A stretch of DNA of 64,000 nucleotides from the NCBI GenBank assembly GCA_016234735.1, contig JACRAN010000338.1, positions 11,441 to 75,440 of the forward strand, in the 5' to 3' direction. The position numbers and the translations under genes are program-made. Position 1 is the stretch's first letter. Each line of letters opens with the position of its first letter. Below, piece after piece: positions 2,931 to 53,393 of the stretch. Source of the stretch: Bacteroidota bacterium. Its GTDB lineage: Bacteria > Bacteroidota > Bacteroidia > Chitinophagales > Saprospiraceae. The notes beneath the pieces are model-generated. The model worked only from the letters and a program-made list of their open reading frames with translations, did no database searches and was not told where the DNA came from.

Positions 2931-3119
2931 GATATAAAATTTTCGGTAAAGTTTGGACAACCTGCCTGGTTTGGGAATGATAAAAATCACCGGCCTGGCT
3001 GTGGAAAATCAGTAAAATTGGGCTGTTGCGGACTACCTAACTCAAGTTGCGGATGATGTTCCGTATCCCGATAGCTATCGGGAAAAATCTTTGTAGTAAA
3101 TTGCCAGAAACGTGAATTT

Positions 3120-13387: not shown

Positions 13388-13471
13388 TGCCGAAAGAGGG
13401 ACTCGAACCCTCACGCCCGTGAAGACACACGCCCCTGAAACGTGCGCGTCTACCAATTCCGCCATTTCGGC
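13388..13471 (-). tRNA. tRNA-Leu (anticodon CAG)
   Basis: The minus strand reads GCCGAAATGGCGGAATTGGTAGACGCGCACGTTTCAGGGGCGTG...GGTTCGAGTCCCTCTTTCGGCA. It has a 7-bp acceptor stem, a long variable arm, anticodon loop TTCAGGG and a T-loop GGTTCGAGTCC. CCA is not encoded. Confidence 0.9.
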
Positions 13472-13492
13472 TGGGGATAGTTTTGAGTTATG

Positions 13493-13549
13493 AGTTATGA
13501 GTTATGAGTTAGTGAGTTGATGTAACTCACTAACTCATAACTCATAACT
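13493..13549. repeat. 26-bp-stem tandem-word hairpin between the two tRNA-Leu genes
   Basis: (GAGTTAT)x3-GAGTTAGTGAGTT, loop gatgt, then AACTCACTAACTCATAACTCATAAC. The stem is perfect over 25-26 bp. Confidence 0.8.
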
Positions 13550-13563
13550 TCTAACCCCCAACG

Positions 13564-13646
13564 TACCGAAGGTGGGACTCGAACCCACACGTAGTTGCCT
13601 ACACTGGATTTTGAATCCAGCGCGTCTACCATTCCGCCACTTCGGC
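13564..13646 (-). tRNA. tRNA-Leu (anticodon CAA)
   Basis: The minus strand reads GCCGAAGTGGCGGAATGGTAGACGCGCTGGATTCAAAATCCAG...GGTTCGAGTCCCACCTTCGGTA. Anticodon loop is TTCAAAA, with a long variable arm. CCA is not encoded. Confidence 0.9.
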
Positions 13647-47471: not shown

Positions 47472-47473
47472 GC

Positions 47474-47548
47474 AAAAAAAAACTCCTACATCAAGGGAGG
47501 CAAAAGGCTGATGTAGGAGCACTAAACATACTATGAGAAAACTACACA
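47474..47548 (-). ncRNA. candidate small RNA, paralog 1 (conserved 20-mer + terminator hairpin)
   Basis: Minus strand: a TACTTTG -7-like box, then AGTTTTCTCATAGTATGTTTAGTG. An 11-bp stem follows (CTCCTACATCA/TGATGTAGGAG) whose loop contains CCTCCC, and then 9 T. Confidence 0.45.
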
Positions 47549-47591
47549 GCGCAAAGTAGCGTAATTCTGAACCTACAAAAAAGCTGCTTTT

Positions 47592-47644
47592 AGGAAACGG
47601 TCGCTTTGGTAAGGAAACGGTCGGTATGGTTTAGTAAATGGTAA
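47592..47644 (-). promoter_or_regulatory. phased direct repeats (candidate LytTR operator) upstream of paralog 1
   Basis: AGGAAACGGTCG occurs perfectly twice (47592-47603 and 47612-47623), with a degenerate third copy AGTAAATGGTAA (47633-47644). Start-to-start spacing is 20 and 21 bp. Confidence 0.5.
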
Positions 47645-47934
47645 TTTCAAATATCGACAGGTAAGATTTTCGGGCAGCGGAATGGATAGAATTCAGACTT
47701 CGTTCATTTTCAAGACAGAAGAAATATTATTTTTTATAATTTTTAACCTTCCGGCACAGAATTGGAAAAGTGGATAATCGTCTTACAAACTGAAAAAAAC
47801 AGGCTCAGGTTTCCAGTTCTGCAAATCACAATTCTTCCTTTAAACTTCACACCGAAGTCCGTTTTCAGGACTTGCAAACAATTCAATTTGGTCATCAATT
47901 TTGGTTGAAGCCATCACATCATTCAGGCCCTGAG

Positions 47935-48004
47935 AAAAAAATTCCTACACCCCAGAAGGGAAACAAAGGTGTAGGAGAATTAAACATACTATGAGAAAAC
48001 TAGA
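47935..48004 (-). ncRNA. candidate small RNA, paralog 2
   Basis: Minus strand: an exact TATCTTTG (TAnnTTTG) box, then AGTTTTCTCATAGTATGTTTAAT. A 9-bp stem follows (TCCTACACC/GGTGTAGGA) whose loop contains TCCCTTC, and then 7 T. Confidence 0.45.
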
Positions 48005-48066
48005 ATCAAAGATAAGACCAACAGTTTTCGGATAAAAGCTATATTTACGCACTGGAAGTTTTTTTA

Positions 48067-48120
48067 AGAAAACGGTAGGGTTCTTTGAGGAAACGGTAGT
48101 TCTTTTTCGATAAACGGAAT
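48067..48120 (-). promoter_or_regulatory. phased direct repeats (candidate LytTR operator) upstream of paralog 2
   Basis: Three copies: AGAAAACGGTAG (48067-48078), AGGAAACGGTAG (48088-48099) and a degenerate GATAAACGGAAT (48109-48120). Start-to-start spacing is exactly 21 bp. Confidence 0.5.
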
Positions 48121-48230
48121 TAATAATCTTAATAATCCTATCCTAAGTCAAAGACAATTTTACTTTTGCAAGGCTGATTAAAGCACTAAATTACTTTTGG
48201 CAACTACACACACATTTTGACCGGCAGGGC

Positions 48231-48303
48231 AAAAAAAATTCCCGCACCCCAGGAGGGACTAAAGGTGCAGGAAGATTAAACAAACATACTATGAGAAAAC
48301 TGT
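48231..48303 (-). ncRNA. candidate small RNA, paralog 3 (also the terminator of the kinase operon)
   Basis: Minus strand: an exact TATATTTG box 4 nt before AGTTTTCTCATAGTATGTTTGTTTAAT. A 10-bp stem follows (TTCCTGCACC/GGTGCGGGAA on minus, with one G-U) whose loop contains CCCTCC, and then 8 T. It begins about 55 nt after the HK stop. Confidence 0.45.
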
Positions 48304-48366
48304 GGCAAATATATTTTATTATTTTTAAATGATAAAATATTTTCACAGAAAAGGTCTTGAATTTCA

Positions 48367-50280
48367 TCACTTTATCTGAATATCCATGATGGGTATCAAG
48401 ACTTCGACTTTCGTTCCAAGTGCCTTGCCGGTTATTTCATCTTCCAAGTCAATGATTTGCACCGCTGTCAATTCAAGATTCCTTGATTGCAACAAGATTT
48501 GAAGCCTGTCCTGGGTAATCCTTGTGCCCATCGACTTGTGATCCTTGAAACCCGGATTTTTTTCCTGAAGCTCCCTGGCTTTCTTGCGGCCAATCCCGTC
48601 ATCTTCGACAATGCACAGAATGGTATTTTCGTCGTGGAAGGTAAATTCTACTTTGATAAGGCCTTTTTTCTTTGAACGGATACCGTGTTCGATTGCATTC
48701 TCCACATAAGGTTGGATAATCATGGTTGGAACACCGTAGATGTCCTCCTCTATTTCCTCATCGATAATTATTTGATACTCAAGTTGGTCCTCAAACCGCA
48801 AATTCATGTTGATTTCGAGGTAATTCCGAAGGAATTCGATTTCTTTTTCCAATGAAATGACTTCCAATTCCGAATATTCCAGGCTTTGCCGCATGAGGTG
48901 GGCAAACTGTGCGAGATACTTAGCTGCCTGCGCAGTGTCGTTGGAAGTGATGCAATTTTGAACAGAGTTCAAGGCATTGAAAACAAAGTGCGGGTTCATC
49001 TGTGCCCGCAAAGCCTTGAGTTGGAGGCCCGCAGCCTGGAGTTTGAACATCTCGGCTTCTTTTTCCTTTCGTTCGGCCGTGAATTTTATTTCAAGTTCCC
49101 TTATTTCCGTATTTTTTTCTTCAAACAGAAAACGTTCAACCGCCTGATTGTACAAAATCTGGTAGTCGTAGGCATTTTTAAAGTCAAGTTCCTTGGCATA
49201 CAAATCGGCAATGTTCTTCAAAATCCCGGTGGCTTGGCGGTAATCTTGTCCCTTCTTGGCAAATTCCAGGGCTTTGAAGTAGTGTTTGAGCGCCTTTTTT
49301 GCTTTCTCTTCTTCAAATATCTTAGCCCGCCACCACTCGATGTTAGCGAGATTTTTATCCCTTTTCTCTTTAAACAACGGGTAGGCCGTTGAAAAAAGCT
49401 CCAAAGCTTCCTTGTACTGCCGTTTGTTCAGGTAACAATATCCCAGATTTGCGTAGGCAATTGCCCGTGCCTGCTGGTTTACATCATCCACTACTTTGAT
49501 GGCTTTTCTAAAATACAGGCCGGCGTTGTCAAAATCCTGTATCGTCATGTAGCCATTGCCCACATTGAGGTAATGCCAGGATAGACGGGACCGCATGCCA
49601 TTTTTTTCACAAAAATCGACTACGTTCAGGTAGGCCTGAATACTCCGCTGTGGTTCATTAAGCAATCCGTAAATGGTACCTAAACCACTTTGAATCAGGG
49701 TGAAAAAATGAAAATCTTTCAAGTCAGGTGTACCTGCCAAATTCTGTATTTCAACTTCACAATCAAGAAATGCCTTGAGTGCTTTGGGGTAGTTTGCAAA
49801 CTTCAGATGGAAAAAGCCTTCCCTGCATATCAATCGAACCCGGAGCCGGTCATCGGGGAATGATTCGAGGTATTTGGAAGCCTGATTCAGGTAAAATCGT
49901 GCCCTGTCGGTTTGGTCGAGATTCAGCAAAGTGCCAGCGTAGTCAATGTAGGTTTCGGCCAATTGGTTGACATCCCCCCGCTCACCGAGAATTTCGAGGG
50001 CTAAACGAAAATGGATTTCGGATAGGTTATAATTGTACAGTTGGTTTTCTACCAGTGCCGTGTTCAGGTGGTAATTGAGGCGGATGTCAGGATGGTCGTA
50101 CTCCGCAAAGATTTCAAGGATTTCGGCCAGGTATTTCTGGGCTTTGGTAATGTCTGAAAAAACTAATTGTGAGGAGAGTTTGTCCAGCGTAGTGAGCCTT
50201 TGAAGGCGTTCGTCAATGAGATGCAGGTTAGATTCCAATTTGATAAGATTCTCGTTGGTATCTGGATAGGTGTGTATCAT
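48367..50280 (-). CDS. TPR-repeat sensor histidine kinase, LytS/YehU-type, no TM segment
   Basis: 637 aa from the ATG at 50280. About 400 aa of TPR-like repeats (e.g. YANLGYCYLNKRQYKEALELF) precede a coiled coil. The His_kinase motif is MNPHFVFNALNSV, and the HATPase has QPYVENAIEHGI ... VEDDGIG. I see no hydrophobic TM stretch or signal peptide. Confidence 0.85.
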   Translation of the reverse strand: MIHTYPDTNENLIKLESNLHLIDERLQRLTTLDKLSSQLVFSDITKAQKYLAEILEIFAEYDHPDIRLNYHLNTALVENQLYNYNLSEIHFRLALEILGERGDVNQLAETYIDYAGTLLNLDQTDRARFYLNQASKYLESFPDDRLRVRLICREGFFHLKFANYPKALKAFLDCEVEIQNLAGTPDLKDFHFFTLIQSGLGTIYGLLNEPQRSIQAYLNVVDFCEKNGMRSRLSWHYLNVGNGYMTIQDFDNAGLYFRKAIKVVDDVNQQARAIAYANLGYCYLNKRQYKEALELFSTAYPLFKEKRDKNLANIEWWRAKIFEEEKAKKALKHYFKALEFAKKGQDYRQATGILKNIADLYAKELDFKNAYDYQILYNQAVERFLFEEKNTEIRELEIKFTAERKEKEAEMFKLQAAGLQLKALRAQMNPHFVFNALNSVQNCITSNDTAQAAKYLAQFAHLMRQSLEYSELEVISLEKEIEFLRNYLEINMNLRFEDQLEYQIIIDEEIEEDIYGVPTMIIQPYVENAIEHGIRSKKKGLIKVEFTFHDENTILCIVEDDGIGRKKARELQEKNPGFKDHKSMGTRITQDRLQILLQSRNLELTAVQIIDLEDEITGKALGTKVEVLIPIMDIQIK

Positions 50281-50417: not shown

Positions 50418-50594
50418 TTATTGTGGCAACTCACCTTGGCAGGGAGCCGGACTGAAAAGCCCGGAAAAAAAGCCTTTTTTCCTAATTTCGCTGGCATTTT
50501 CATTGCCTCCCAGGAATTCGCCCATCTCAAATTTTTTCAATTGATTTAGGTCGTCGAGTTCACCGAGGTTCTTTTTTTTGGTAGTCCTCCCCAT
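50418..50594 (-). CDS. small precursor peptide with double-glycine (GG) leader
   Basis: MGRTTKKKNLGELDDLNQLKKFEMGEFLGG then NENASEIRKKGFFSGLFSPAPCQGELPQ. The leader has hydrophobic residues at -4, -7, -12 and -15, E at -8, and GG at -2/-1. An alternative in-frame ATG at 50630 would add 12 aa. The gene sits between the RR and HK genes. Confidence 0.6.
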   Translation of the reverse strand: MGRTTKKKNLGELDDLNQLKKFEMGEFLGGNENASEIRKKGFFSGLFSPAPCQGELPQ

Positions 50595-50844
50595 AGCATC
50601 TAAGTTTTGAGTGAAAAATCTGAAGTTCATAGTGTTCTCGTTTATTCTGACGAGTTAAAAGTATGTGCGTTCTCCGGTTCCAAAGATAGGGACTTTTCAG
50701 AGTATCCAAAGTCTCCCGACAAAAATTGTCTGTGTAGCCAAAGCCGGGCTGGATGTAGTTCGCCTCTCAAAAAATCCTACTTGGTTGCGGGTTGCCTCCC
50801 ACCAACACTTTTACTCTATCGGTTAAAAAATGTGTAAGTTACAT

Positions 50845-51654
50845 TTAAAGTGCCTCTTCCAACCTCCTCATTTGCTCCATGAAAGCCGGACGCCTCCTGC
50901 GCGAAACTTCGATTTTTTTGCCATCGTCCATCACAAGGTAGCCTCCATCACCTTTGATAAACTTCCGAATATAATTCAAATTGATCACGTGACGCTTGTG
51001 GACCCTGTAAAAATTCAAGACTTGTAGCATGTCCTCGTAGGCTTTGATGGTCTTGGATGCGGTAATCCGGTCACCGTTCGTCAGAAAAATATGGGTGTAA
51101 TTATCCTCGGCTTCAAACCGGACAATGTCTTTGATACTCACAAAGTAGATCCCATCCACTGCCGAAATACTCATTTTTTCAAAGGAATTCGGGTTGCTGA
51201 GTGCCTTGTTGAACAACTCTAGCCGCTCCTCAATCTTCTCGGAACGGTGCGCACGAATCCGGCTCACTGCCTGAACCAACTCATCGGGGTTGATGGGTTT
51301 CATGATGTAGCCGATGGAACTGTACTGGCAGGCTCGGATGGCGAATTCATTAAACGCAGTAATGAAAATGACCTCGAAATCAATGGGTTTCAATTCGTCA
51401 AGCATCTGGAAAATCAGACCATCGGGCAGGTTGATGTCAAGGAAGGCGACATCCGGCTTGAAATCAGGCTCCTCAAATAGTTCTAGCGCTTCCTCAATGT
51501 TCAGGGCATCGGCTACGACCTGAACCTCCGGGCAGTGATTGGCCAGGAGGTTTTTGAGGTTGTTCATGCTTTTGATTTCGTCTTCGACGATTAGCGCTTT
51601 GATCACGGGTATCGATTTACTGAGTTCCAAGGGCTGTGTTGGCATTTTTATCAT
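50845..51654 (-). CDS. LytTR-family response regulator
   Basis: 269 aa. The receiver domain has ALIVEDE and FLDINLPDG. The C-terminal LytTR DNA-binding domain has IVRFEAEDNYTHIF and FYRVHKRHVINLNYI. Confidence 0.9.
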   Translation of the reverse strand: MIKMPTQPLELSKSIPVIKALIVEDEIKSMNNLKNLLANHCPEVQVVADALNIEEALELFEEPDFKPDVAFLDINLPDGLIFQMLDELKPIDFEVIFITAFNEFAIRACQYSSIGYIMKPINPDELVQAVSRIRAHRSEKIEERLELFNKALSNPNSFEKMSISAVDGIYFVSIKDIVRFEAEDNYTHIFLTNGDRITASKTIKAYEDMLQVLNFYRVHKRHVINLNYIRKFIKGDGGYLVMDDGKKIEVSRRRRPAFMEQMRRLEEAL

Positions 51655-52661: not shown

Positions 52662-53393
52662 TTACAAATCTTTTAAAACAGAACTGATGCCCCCGTCCAG
52701 CAGGAAGTTGGCCCCGTGAATGAACCCGTCGTTTTCCGAAGCGAGGAACAGCGCCAGCTTGGCCACGTCCGCCGGGTAGCCGATGCGCTGCACCGGATGG
52801 ATTTTGCGTAGCTCGTCCAGGGCTGATTCGTCGTTTTCAAAACCGGCCCGCAACATGTCCGTCTCGATGGCAGCCGGGCTGATGGCATTCACCCGCACCC
52901 TGCCCTCCAGGTCTACGGCCATGGACTTTGTCAGCCCCACGAGGGCGCTTTTGGAAGTGGCGTAACTGATGAAACCAGGCTTCGTCAGTTGCTGGTGGAT
53001 GCTGGCGATGTTGATAATGCTTCCCCTGCTTGTTTCCAAACGCCCCAAAAAAAGTTTGCTCAACAGCATCGGGCCGGTCAGGTTCACGTTCAGGGTTTCC
53101 TGCCAGTCTTCGAGCTTGATATTTTCCAATTTATCGAGCCGCTGCACGGCGGCGTTGTTGATCAACACATCGAGCTTGGGCATCACTTCATCGAAAATCT
53201 GCGAAAAACGGATGCGGTAGGCCGCATCCCTGACGAATTGATGTATGTCAAAATGGAGGAAACGGTCGCAATTCCCGTGAAAATCCTCCCGCATGTCCAC
53301 GCCATAAACGTAGAAGCCCTTCTCCCGAAAAGCCTTGGCGAGGGCCGACCCAATGCCGCCGAGTACCCCCGTAATGAATACATTTTTGCTCAT
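52662..53393 (-). CDS. SDR family oxidoreductase
   Basis: 243 aa. TGVLGGIGSALA (TGxxxGxG), NNAA, and catalytic YATSK (YxxxK). Confidence 0.88.
   Translation of the reverse strand: MSKNVFITGVLGGIGSALAKAFREKGFYVYGVDMREDFHGNCDRFLHFDIHQFVRDAAYRIRFSQIFDEVMPKLDVLINNAAVQRLDKLENIKLEDWQETLNVNLTGPMLLSKLFLGRLETSRGSIINIASIHQQLTKPGFISYATSKSALVGLTKSMAVDLEGRVRVNAISPAAIETDMLRAGFENDESALDELRKIHPVQRIGYPADVAKLALFLASENDGFIHGANFLLDGGISSVLKDL

Follow-up and report, generated by a model that had tools for sequence, protein, structure and literature searches.

What is the function of the phased direct repeats that stand upstream of two of the three tandem modules on the minus strand of this Bacteroidota locus? A preliminary description of the window (the whole 64-kb stretch of DNA analysed here) had reported 12-bp repeats about two helical turns apart and had read them as operators of the LytTR type.

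Phased direct repeats precede two of three tandem modules

The repeat positions and the 20/21-bp spacing given in the preliminary description proved exact when checked against the sequence and by pattern and repeat search (Table 1). Repeat starts are 20 bp and then 21 bp apart in unit 1 and 21 bp apart throughout in unit 2, and both units, read on the minus strand, yield the consensus that had been proposed, C(G/T)ACCGTTT(C/T)CT. The 12-mer itself is mildly enriched in the window (18 matches with up to two mismatches versus 9.6 expected), and phased pairs (20-22 bp) were observed twice versus none in 300 dinucleotide-preserving shuffles; the phased arrangement, not the bare 12-mer, is the significant part of the signal. 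A weight matrix trained exclusively on orthologous loci of other genomes gave six matches of at least 14 bits in the window, four of which are repeats of units 1 and 2. The one other exact 12-mer in the window, at 53257-53268, was rejected as a member of the regulon, being a lone site without a partner inside an SDR gene, where it codes for C-D-R-F-L-H and is kept as protein. The string ACCGTTTCCT also arises as a chance product of x-Arg-Phe-Leu codons, both at position 53257 of the window and in a Pseudomonas gene.

Unit 2 has in addition a promoter-proximal variant site (TTCCAGTGCGTAAAT), a conserved element that the preliminary description had missed. This site strays far from the consensus and could be the target of a second factor. 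An apparent conflict in geometry between the units, a 17-nt difference in the distance from repeat to module, was dismissed: moving by one 21-bp register and then correcting for the predicted start, which is shifted by 4 nt, accounts for it, with the conserved variant site filling the proximal register of unit 2.

Table 1. Coordinates of the features discussed, numbered from the first letter of the window.
Feature	Position	Strand	Details
Unit 1 proximal repeat, CGACCGTTTCCT (plus strand AGGAAACGGTCG)	47592..47603	minus	core centre about -50 from predicted sRNA-1 start; PWM 20.4 bits
Unit 1 second repeat, CGACCGTTTCCT (plus strand AGGAAACGGTCG)	47612..47623	minus	centre about -70; PWM 19.0 bits
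Unit 1 distal degenerate repeat, TTACCATTTACT (plus strand AGTAAATGGTAA)	47633..47644	minus	centre about -91
Unit 2 promoter-proximal variant site, TTCCAGTGCGTAAAT	48043..48057	minus	centre about -49; same register as unit 1 proximal repeat
Unit 2 repeat, CTACCGTTTTCT (plus strand AGAAAACGGTAG)	48067..48078	minus	centre about -70; PWM 14.8 bits
Unit 2 repeat, CTACCGTTTCCT (plus strand AGGAAACGGTAG)	48088..48099	minus	centre about -91; PWM 20.9 bits
Unit 2 distal degenerate repeat, ATTCCGTTTATC (plus strand GATAAACGGAAT)	48109..48120	minus	centre about -112; weak site
sRNA-1 (module 1), predicted	47474..47547	minus	predicted start GUGUAGUUUUCUC...; 20-mer 47543 to 47524; hairpin 47519 to 47483, GCCUCCC loop; U-run
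sRNA-1 -7 box, CTACTTTG	47552..47559	minus	-33 TTTG upstream; orthologues C(T/C)(A/T)CTTTGCA
sRNA-2 (module 2), predicted	47935..48002	minus	20-mer 48001 to 47982; hairpin with UCCCUUC loop; U-run
sRNA-2 -7 box, TATCTTTG	48007..48014	minus	TA(A/C/T)(C/T)TTT(G/A) at the same place in all orthologues
sRNA-3 (module 3), predicted, with its -7 box TATATTTG (48313 to 48306)	48231..48313	minus	predicted start 48301
Sensor kinase, 637 aa	48367..50280	minus	N-terminal TPR repeats and His_kinase (PF06580), Pfam
Small ORF, double-glycine-leader-like peptide	50418..50630	minus	...KKFEMGEFLGG/NENAS...PCQGELPQ
Predicted pairing site for invariant sRNA 5' end	50583..50601	minus	spans Met13 AUG of peptide mRNA
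Response regulator, REC and LytTR	50845..51654	minus	Pfam Response_reg 2.7e-15, LytTR 2.1e-19; candidate binder

The modules are predicted small RNA genes

The modules form three tandem predicted small-RNA genes of approximately 70 nt on the minus strand. Across 26 copies from 10 loci, each carries an identical 20-mer (AGUUUUCUCAUAGUAUGUUU), followed by an 11-bp stem and then a U-run. The 11-pair stem carries compensatory changes, with both sides altered at four pairs, and folding z-scores of the module RNAs range from -3.4 to -3.9 (sRNA-1, -17.6 kcal/mol, z = -3.4; sRNA-2, -17.0 kcal/mol, z = -3.5). The predicted RNA layout is an unpaired 20-nt 5' end and then a terminator hairpin with a C-rich loop. 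In sRNA-3 a 4-nt GUUU insertion stands behind the 20-mer, ahead of a hairpin with a UCCCUCC loop and a U-run.

No conserved reading frame was found in the 26 module copies. In the three copies of the window, the lone ATG opens frames of 12, 23 and 3 aa, the frame of module 3 being broken by the 4-nt insertion, and small peptides starting from this ATG in the 20-mer (MFSAPTSAFCLP, a 23-aa product and MFV) were rejected as module products. We also rejected the plus-strand MRKL... ORFs as peptides, as these are 8-14 aa long and unrelated past four residues. A search of the window against Rfam 15 returned two tRNAs only at the gathering score, and the best sub-threshold match over a module was Pseudomon-1 (24 bits versus a cut-off of 50), in which the terminator alone was aligned. 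The modules are predicted to be trans-acting sRNA genes with an intrinsic terminator, and their RNAs most likely act by base pairing.

The start sites of the RNAs were predicted from the Bacteroidota -7 box, which spans -12 to -5 (PMC9723704). A TAnnTTTG-like box matching the consensus lies 4-8 nt before the invariant 20-mer in all 26 copies, which puts the predicted RNA start on the A of AGUUUUCUC and, in copies of the module-1 type, 4 nt further upstream. A promoter at TATGTTTA within the 20-mer would leave a transcript of the hairpin alone; it was rejected because the better-conserved TAnnTTTG box stands just upstream in every copy and because the 20-mer would then have no need of invariance. 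Relative to the predicted starts, both repeat-bearing promoters have sites at approximately -50, -70 and -91, with the extra weak site of unit 2 at approximately -112. The claim that the repeats sit just upstream of the -33/-7 boxes holds for two promoters, with the proximal centre at about -50; the sites overlap neither these boxes nor the predicted start, and all lie upstream of -45, the classic position of an activator. No repeats were found upstream of sRNA-3 in the window, even though no other copy is closer to the kinase gene. It lies 1-2 nt past an AT-rich spacer 3' of the kinase stop codon, has a predicted AT-rich promoter of its own, without repeats, and is probably expressed independently.

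Repeat cores and spacing are conserved across orthologous loci

The sites of module 2 (-96/-75/-54 from the invariant 20-mer) and module 1 (-99/-78/-58) are fixed in the orthologous Saprospiraceae loci L002-L008; the second repeat of unit 1 is the one at -78, and the two repeats of unit 2 with weight-matrix scores are those at -75 and -96. Kinase identity falls to 56% in these loci and the spacer DNA around the sites has diverged, with cores and spacing kept. Weaker phased copies of the repeats are found in L009 and L010 (54% kinase identity). The proximal repeat of unit 1 has an orthologous site at the same offset in L002-L008, and its distal repeat corresponds to a conserved TTACCATTTTCT at -99 from the 20-mer in L002-L004 and L008, a block that is also visible in the column profile of 43 M1-type promoters. 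The distal repeat of unit 2 has its counterpart in TTTCCGTTTAT, conserved with unchanged offset in L003-L005 and L007. The variant site reads CCA(G/T)TGCGTAAATGTAG in L002-L005 and L007 and is nearer the canonical repeat in L006 (TACCGATGCGT) and L008 (GACCATTACAT).

Among 148 non-redundant promoters collected from diverse metagenomes by the RNA seed alone, 79% have a phased pair scoring above the 95th percentile of shuffles, and the signal is strand-specific, the opposite strand not rising above shuffles. As judged from these comparisons, the repeats are real, evolutionarily conserved and operator-like.

A LytTR regulator, a TPR kinase and a peptide gene are syntenic with the RNA genes

The LytTR gene that had been placed 3 kb away is confirmed by Pfam as a protein with REC and LytTR domains. 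Its nearest named NCBIfam models are BtsR (1.3e-30) and LytR, both under cut-off. The start of the sensor kinase is fixed by orthologues of 637 aa. No membrane segment was found in the kinase, for which the top Kyte-Doolittle 19-residue mean is 1.0; its PF06580 domain is typical of LytS-type partners. Between the regulator and kinase genes sits a small ORF that is conserved in alignment and matches GG-leader models below their cut-off; its K-rich leader closes with GG, and C-x-G-x-(L/V)-P-Q is conserved at the C-terminus. The invariant Met13 (50594 to 50592) is probably the real start of this peptide. Regulator, peptide, kinase and RNA genes are syntenic in 10/10 orthologous loci (approximately 54-84% kinase identity). 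The gene lists, which reach 6 kb to either side, contain SDR, MptE-like, PBP1C and other genes but none for an AgrB-like protein or a C39-peptidase ABC transporter.

In nine of the ten loci, no conserved sites precede the regulator, peptide or kinase genes, and L010 has a single site. Autoinduction is therefore unsupported, which is what the preliminary description had concluded.

The repeat pair also occurs beside other LytTR operons

Genomes were scanned with the bare repeat-pair pattern, independently of the RNA genes. The pair was recovered at 17 RNA promoters and, in addition, 5-100 nt downstream of eight other operons encoding a LytTR regulator and a Reg_prop/Y_Y_Y His_kinase, in Flavobacterium, Flavipsychrobacter and other Bacteroidota, without any module. 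In Saprospirales genomes it also precedes cas6b and a further peptide gene, with no regulator nearby in the examined stretch. Two sets of matches were set aside as unrelated to regulation, namely numerous Pseudomonas matches, which come from one coding sequence (YRFLPPMHRFL), and nine Saprospiraceae matches, which fall where an opposite-strand gene encodes its N-terminus, MSQKGTVGFYEETV. The motif is thus common to at least two kinds of LytTR systems, those with TPR kinases and those with Y_Y_Y kinases, so the motif alone cannot name the binding regulator. Among 74 informative metagenome loci, 41 have the RNA genes and repeats without a two-component system within the examined stretch, so the link with the regulator varies by clade.

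The peptide start codon is the best predicted RNA target

Searches for seed targets with perfect complementarity of at least 10 nt gave nothing convincing in the window and the loci. A candidate site on the peptide mRNA surfaced by energy-based scanning. With a duplex energy of -16.9 kcal/mol, this site outranks every other non-self site for the invariant 20-mer on either strand of the 64-kb window. The pairing is predicted at -16 to -19 kcal/mol across loci and depends in part on several G-U pairs formed with coding sequence rich in purines, and the peptide-start site ranks as the top non-self site in the window and in seven of nine related loci and recurs in four further loci. An orthologous site was found in 14 loci; most clades keep it, and it is absent in one Lewinellaceae clade (L079, L113 and L118). 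These energies make the peptide start codon the best predicted target of the RNAs.

The repeats are probably operators of a LytTR-family regulator

LytTR sites consist of two or more direct or inverted repeats of 9-11 nt, spaced 11-13 nt apart (PMC4847170), and the proximal repeat of AgrA lies near -60 (PMC4227749). The repeat core observed here, ACCGTTYCC(T), is 9-10 nt long with a spacer of 11-12 nt, within the published LytTR pattern (PMC4847170), and the proximal site at approximately -50 is close to the approximately -60 of AgrA (PMC4227749). Architecture, position, conservation, the nearby regulator and the association with other LytTR operons all agree with the LytTR-type operator reading put forward in the preliminary description. 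The likeness to the AlgR core noted there is a loose resemblance. ACCGTTYC presumably also resembles the BtsR (YehT) motif, a likeness that we did not count as evidence.

We therefore consider it probable that the repeats are operators of a LytTR-family regulator, most probably the one encoded at 50845-51654. In the mechanism that we propose, the soluble TPR-His_kinase would phosphorylate the regulator, whose dimers would fill the phased sites cooperatively, the 20-21 bp spacing of two turns putting the repeats on one face of the helix. Both regulated promoters would be Bacteroidota promoters of the housekeeping-sigma (sigmaA) type, and the bound regulator would activate two of the three tandem paralogous sRNAs of approximately 70 nt. 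The 5' ends of these sRNAs may pair with the start codon of the peptide gene, in which case a feedback loop would close. Binding itself, activation rather than repression, expression of the RNAs, their target and the identity of the binder are inferred.

Alternatively, the repeats may be genuine operators of another binder, either a paralogous LytTR regulator encoded elsewhere or some other direct-repeat-binding factor, with the neighbouring regulator controlling something else. The 41 of 74 informative metagenome loci whose RNA genes and phased repeats lie far from two-component systems point in this direction, as does the pair before cas6b and the other peptide gene in Saprospirales, and the identical core adjoins LytTR systems with quite different kinases, so recognition may be common to paralogues. 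This alternative is nevertheless unlikely: at every one of the ten orthologous loci the regulator, kinase and RNA genes keep strict synteny, and in eight independent systems the pair directly follows the LytTR operon, as would be expected of a regulator acting on its neighbour.

Two further explanations dispense with activation at these sites. Intrinsic bending elements also show 20-21 bp phasing, each site ends in an A-tract (CCTAAA/CCTCAAA), and sequence alone gives no direction of regulation, all of which would suit a structural role (phased bending or UP-like) or a regulator binding as repressor or roadblock; however, conservation falls on the G/C-rich CCGTT cores and not on the A-tracts, and the sites stay upstream of -45, clear of the -33/-7 boxes and the start, making either role quite improbable. 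That the repeats are functionless leftovers of tandem duplication, kept through close kinship of the loci, is hardly credible: modules 1 and 2 are indeed paralogous, so some upstream similarity is expected, but the paralogous and orthologous DNA between and around the repeats has diverged beyond recognition with cores and spacing kept, the strand-specific signal holds in the 148 non-redundant promoters from diverse metagenomes, and the same pair occurs beside unrelated, module-free LytTR operons.

Implications for regulation in Bacteroidota

With operators of the neighbouring LytTR-family regulator as our preferred reading, the repeats suggest that Bacteroidota possess a regulator-to-small-RNA circuit not described before. 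A fuller picture, which we offer tentatively and regard as possible though rather doubtful, is an unrecognised circuit of Saprospirales in which a cytoplasmic TPR-kinase and a LytTR regulator drive sRNAs that pair with the start codon of a presumed signal peptide, giving quorum-sensing-like feedback. If true, it would combine a kinase-fused intracellular TPR receptor in the RRNPP style with Qrr-like multi-copy RNAs in Bacteroidota, and the motif before cas6b and other peptide genes would widen the regulon. The regulator-to-RNA-to-peptide feedback hypothesis might then offer a first way into the study of peptide-type cell-cell signalling in the phylum. Two products of the analysis are of wider use: a deeply conserved operator motif, TACCGTTYCCT with 21-bp phasing, that is apparently used by LytTR regulators across Bacteroidota and can serve regulon prediction, and a predicted new, widespread sRNA family with a 20-nt invariant seed that is not in Rfam.

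Activated sludge, lakes and marine particles all harbour Saprospiraceae in abundance. To our knowledge, almost nothing has been established about regulation in this family, and the biology of sRNAs in Bacteroidota beyond Bacteroides and Flavobacterium is essentially unexplored. The hypotheses raised here are testable in cultured relatives such as Haliscomenobacter and Phaeodactylibacter.

Comparison with known systems

The Qrr RNAs of Vibrio offer a parallel to the proposed circuit, being several paralogous short RNAs with an absolutely conserved pairing region, transcribed under a phosphorylated response regulator of a signalling pathway and feeding back onto components of that pathway. Qrr transcription requires sigma-54 and LuxO, and these RNAs are Hfq-dependent, whereas the promoters here are predicted to be sigmaA-type and under a LytTR regulator; there is no sequence relationship between Qrr and the modules, for which Rfam gives no match. 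Among LytS/LytTR systems, BtsS/BtsR and YpdA/YpdB of Enterobacteria are the named systems whose models come nearest to the regulator (BtsR, below cut-off), and they share the PF06580 kinase domain. YpdB binds the direct repeat GGCATTTCAT cooperatively, and in both systems the target is a neighbour gene or a single promoter, much as is proposed here. In contrast, BtsS and YpdA are membrane kinases that sense pyruvate and induce transporters, without a small RNA, a peptide gene or a TPR sensor.

The operators of ComE, BlpR and PlnC/PlnD, from Gram-positive peptide pheromone systems, are also direct repeats of 9-11 nt, 11-13 nt apart (PMC4847170). Their loci hold a LytTR regulator together with a gene for a double-glycine-leader peptide; the putative peptide here matches GG-leader models below threshold. 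Those regulators switch on their own operon as well as genes for bacteriocins or competence, whereas here the putative targets are sRNAs and the operon is without sites.

The agr system of Staphylococcus aureus resembles the circuit proposed here in that AgrA recognises imperfect direct-repeat pairs approximately two turns apart upstream of the P2 and P3 promoters (PMC4227749), has a regulatory RNA (RNAIII) as one output and carries a peptide precursor gene in the locus, to which the double-glycine-leader-like ORF here may correspond. The kinase here is soluble, with TPR repeats and PF06580, where that of agr is a membrane HPK10 receptor; there is no AgrB-like or C39 transporter gene nearby, and no sites before the regulator, peptide or kinase genes that would suggest autoinduction. 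Three to four phased sites, rather than two, precede promoters of the Bacteroidota -33/-7 type, and in place of the single 514-nt RNA of agr, the locus has two or three short paralogous predicted RNAs that share an invariant seed.

Phased repeats upstream of two small-RNA genes

The 12-bp direct repeats that the preliminary description had placed at 47592-48120, upstream of modules 1 and 2 of three tandem ~70-nt small-RNA genes (RNA-1, RNA-2, and RNA-3), are present exactly as described. The four strong copies, which are spaced 20 and 21 bp apart, came out as one family in a repeat search. A loose search for the 12-mer showed only mild enrichment (18 matches versus 9.6 expected). However, a weight matrix trained exclusively on other genomes scored six sites in the 64 kb at 14 bits or more, four of which are these repeats, and two phased pairs were found in the window compared to none in 300 dinucleotide-preserving shuffles. 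The arrangement of the repeats is therefore not due to chance. The other exact 12-mer (53257) is solitary and lies within an SDR gene, where it codes for CDRFLH. Caution is required in motif-only regulon searches because x-Arg-Phe-Leu codons readily yield ACCGTTTCCT.

Repeats, predicted start sites, and neighbouring genes (window positions)
Feature	Position	Strand	Basis
Unit 1 repeat, AGGAAACGGTCG	47592		sequence read
Unit 1 repeat, AGGAAACGGTCG	47612		sequence read
Unit 1 degenerate repeat, AGTAAATGGTAA	47633		sequence read
Unit 2 repeat, AGAAAACGGTAG	48067		sequence read
Unit 2 repeat, AGGAAACGGTAG	48088		sequence read
Unit 2 repeat, GATAAACGGAAT	48109		sequence read
Predicted start, module 1	47547	minus	-7 box rule
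Predicted start, module 2	48002/48001	minus	-7 box rule
Predicted start, module 3	48301	minus	-7 box rule
Kinase, TPR repeats + PF06580 His_kinase	48367-50280	minus	Pfam
Small ORF, 70 codons	50418-50630	minus	
Response regulator, REC+LytTR	50845-51654	minus	Pfam

Small-RNA genes and their promoters

The three units lie on the minus strand, flanked by the genes for the kinase and for PBP1C, the latter convergent. Each consists of a TAnnTTTG-like box, 4-8 nt, an identical 20-mer (AGTTTTCTCATAGTATGTTT), a hairpin of 9-13 bp whose C-rich loop is CCUCCC, CCCUUC or CCCUCC, and 7-9 U. The three RNAs fold into an unpaired 5' end of ~25 nt plus a terminator (-17 to -19 kcal/mol, z -3.4 to -3.9). The RNA family is undescribed: an Rfam search of the modules returned no family. 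The module copies have no reading frame in common. The only Rfam gathering-score matches in the window are two tRNA genes (13388-13646, minus strand).

For sigmaA, the housekeeping sigma factor, the -7 box TAnnTTTG spans -12 to -5 in Flavobacterium (PMC9723704), and start sites were predicted by applying this rule. They coincide with the first base of the 20-mer, except in module 1 where the start is 4 nt upstream of it. With these starts the apparent 17-nt discrepancy between units disappears, and the repeats are centred at about -50, -70, and -91 in both promoters, bearing out their proposed location just upstream of the -33/-7 boxes.

The RNA-1 terminator (47472-47520) adjoins the stop codon of PBP1C (end 47471), read-through of which would yield an RNA antisense to RNA-1; on the plus strand the RNA-1 hairpin has an A-run before it and no U-run after it. 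A decayed fourth copy, similar to module 1, lies just past the RNA-3 terminator (48168-48213, minus strand; TGTGTGTAGTT...TTTAGTGC...TCAGCCTT). It has neither a promoter box nor the 3' half of the hairpin, and its outline is kept at the same place in orthologous loci L002-L005.

Neighbouring genes

The nearby LytTR gene noted in the preliminary description encodes a REC+LytTR response regulator. The start of the kinase, and hence its length of 637 aa, was set by orthologues, and its N-terminal 430 aa are TPR-like throughout. The kinase is predicted to be cytoplasmic since hydropathy analysis found no hydrophobic or membrane segment in it.

The small ORF is conserved; its product has a leader that is rich in lysine and ends in GG, and its C-terminus carries C-x-G-x-(L/V)-P-Q. 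This is reminiscent of double-glycine leader peptides, with curated models scoring below their cut-offs. Met13 (50594) is invariant and is the sole start in the more distant homologues (L009 and L010), and is probably the true start, although the 12 preceding codons are also conserved in closer relatives. ACUAUG precedes both candidate starts. The spacer between the regulator and the small ORF contains a GGGAGGC motif (50780-50800, minus strand) upstream of the promoter predicted for the small ORF (TATCTTTG box), kept in 6-7 orthologous spacers (TGGGAGGC) and exactly complementary to the RNA-1 loop GCCUCCC. Shine-Dalgarno-like sequences such as this are unusual in Bacteroidota.

Conservation of the repeats and RNA genes

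Kinase orthologues occur throughout Saprospiraceae and relatives. We compared nine orthologous loci (kinase identity 84% to 54%), all of which keep the order regulator, small ORF, kinase, and then between one and three RNA genes whose 20-mer is identical. The 26 RNA copies align with an 11-pair stem in which both sides have changed at four pairs. Offsets of the core ACCGTTYCC from the 20-mer are fixed at -96/-75 (module 2 type) and -78/-58 (module 1 type), with a degenerate copy one register farther out in both types, and the intervening and flanking DNA cannot be aligned. The promoter-nearest register of module 2 is a conserved variant, CCA(G/T)TGCGTAAAT, which reads TACCGATGCGT in L006 and GACCATTACAT in L008, both nearer to the canonical repeat.

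When metagenomes were scanned for the 20-mer, at least 120 stretches with at least 176 copies were recovered. Among the matches listed, the kinase is directly upstream in at least 32 loci, and no two-component system was found within the stretches of 41 informative loci. Phased pairs scored above the 95th percentile of shuffles in 79% of 148 non-redundant upstream regions among these matches, and none did so on the opposite strand of the same regions. The column profile of 43 module-1-type promoters among them shows three blocks, a -33 T-run, and the -7 box. What is conserved is thus the combination of repeats, promoter, and RNA; being linked to the regulator is characteristic of the window's own clade.

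In a fourth RNA subtype (L139, L154, L156, L176, L194, L195, L203, L208, and L212), the same 20-mer precedes UGAUUUUCCUACUGC...GCAGUAGGA. This subtype is located away from any two-component system, and phased repeats of the CCGCCGTTCC type are still present upstream of it. The gene preceding it in L195 and L208 encodes a product that starts MPE(V/I)KLFACSAS, presumably a ribose-phosphate pyrophosphokinase.

Association with LytTR systems

Published LytTR sites are repeats of 9-11 nt, 11-13 nt apart (PMC4847170), and the proximal AgrA repeat is near -60 (PMC4227749). The repeats fit both descriptions, in agreement with the LytTR-type architecture originally proposed. Scanning 185,579 species genomes for ACCGTTYCCT-N10-11-ACCGTTYCCT returned at least 119 stretches. 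At least 17 of the matches listed belong to RNA promoters and are followed by the 20-mer after 47 or 63-67 nt. In at least eight other Bacteroidota among them, the pair lies 5-100 nt past the stop codon of an operon that encodes another LytTR regulator and a His_kinase (hosts include Flavobacterium, Flavobacteriales, Flavipsychrobacter, and a bin labelled Ignavibacteria), for which Pfam confirmed REC+LytTR and Reg_prop/Y_Y_Y His_kinase. This repeated occurrence of a protein-blind DNA pattern beside LytTR systems is the strongest available support for a LytTR regulator reading the motif.

Coding-sequence matches among those listed comprise at least 26 from Pseudomonas (L012, L015, L059, and about 23 more loci), an identical 31-mer within one conserved coding sequence (YRFLPPMHRFL), and at least nine in which the opposite strand encodes the N-terminus of a gene product. 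The general Bacteroidota layout (L022, L031, L035, L042, L063, L099, L107, and L020) is a LytTR regulator, a large Reg_prop/Y_Y_Y His_kinase, and ACCGTTCCCT-N11-ACCGTTCCCT straight after the kinase stop, usually followed by a gene whose product is secreted and carries a signal peptide; in L022 and L063 a non-coding stretch follows. A phased pair also lies 120-150 nt upstream of cas6b (Pfam Cas6b_N and Cas6b_C) in two different Saprospiraceae-type genomes (L068:1726-1756; L070, minus strand, about 3078-3108, three copies), which hints that a CRISPR-Cas operon may belong to the same or a paralogous regulon. In a Lewinellaceae genome (L073:4694-4994), another small ORF begins 61 nt past a pair; its product has a leader of the double-glycine type (...LNKSDLSKVEGG...) and a sub-threshold match to Bacteriocin_IIc.

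In nine of ten loci, the weight matrix detected no conserved sites upstream of the regulator, the small ORF or the kinase; in L010 a single site precedes the regulator gene. Autoinduction is thus unsupported, as previously judged.

A candidate RNA target

Exact complements of the 20-mer (at least 10 nt) in the window and loci included nothing convincing. In a duplex-energy scan, the invariant 5' end is predicted to pair with the region of the small-ORF Met13 AUG in all ten loci, over ~16 bp that include several G-U pairs (-15.7 to -19.2 kcal/mol). This site is the best on both strands of the 64-kb window (-16.9 versus a mean of -5.1, sd 2.3, with the antisense strand of the RNA genes excluded), ranks first in seven of nine other loci, and is also the top site in four further genomes from the repeat scan. 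The upstream half of the site is untranslated in L009 and L010, and AUACUAUG is nevertheless kept. Since the pairing is absent in one Lewinellaceae clade, although the peptide gene is present, the small-ORF start codon is a lead rather than a finding.

Proposed mechanism and comparison with known systems

The sites, their phase, position, and conservation, the anatomy of the RNA genes, and the association with LytTR systems are directly observed. Transcription, binding, the paralogue that binds, the sign of regulation, and the target are predicted. The kinase would phosphorylate the LytTR regulator, dimers of which would bind the phased sites cooperatively on one helix face and activate the RNA-2 and RNA-1 promoters, while RNA-3 would be transcribed from an AT-rich promoter that lacks sites. 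Pairing would involve the invariant 5' end of the RNAs and perhaps their C-rich loop as well, and the first candidate target is the start codon of the peptide gene.

The locus departs from agr/com-type systems in several defining respects: the kinase is predicted to be soluble, autoinduction sites are lacking, and none of the nearby genes is for processing or export of that type. A cytoplasmic TPR sensor beside a gene for a secretion-leader-like peptide recalls RRNPP peptide receptors, but here the TPR is fused to a histidine kinase. The RNAs also recall Vibrio Qrr, which are multi-copy RNAs with an invariant seed. The operator architecture is the same as that of AgrA, ComE/BlpR/PlnC-D, and YpdB, and agr P3-RNAIII provides a precedent for a LytTR regulator driving a regulatory RNA.
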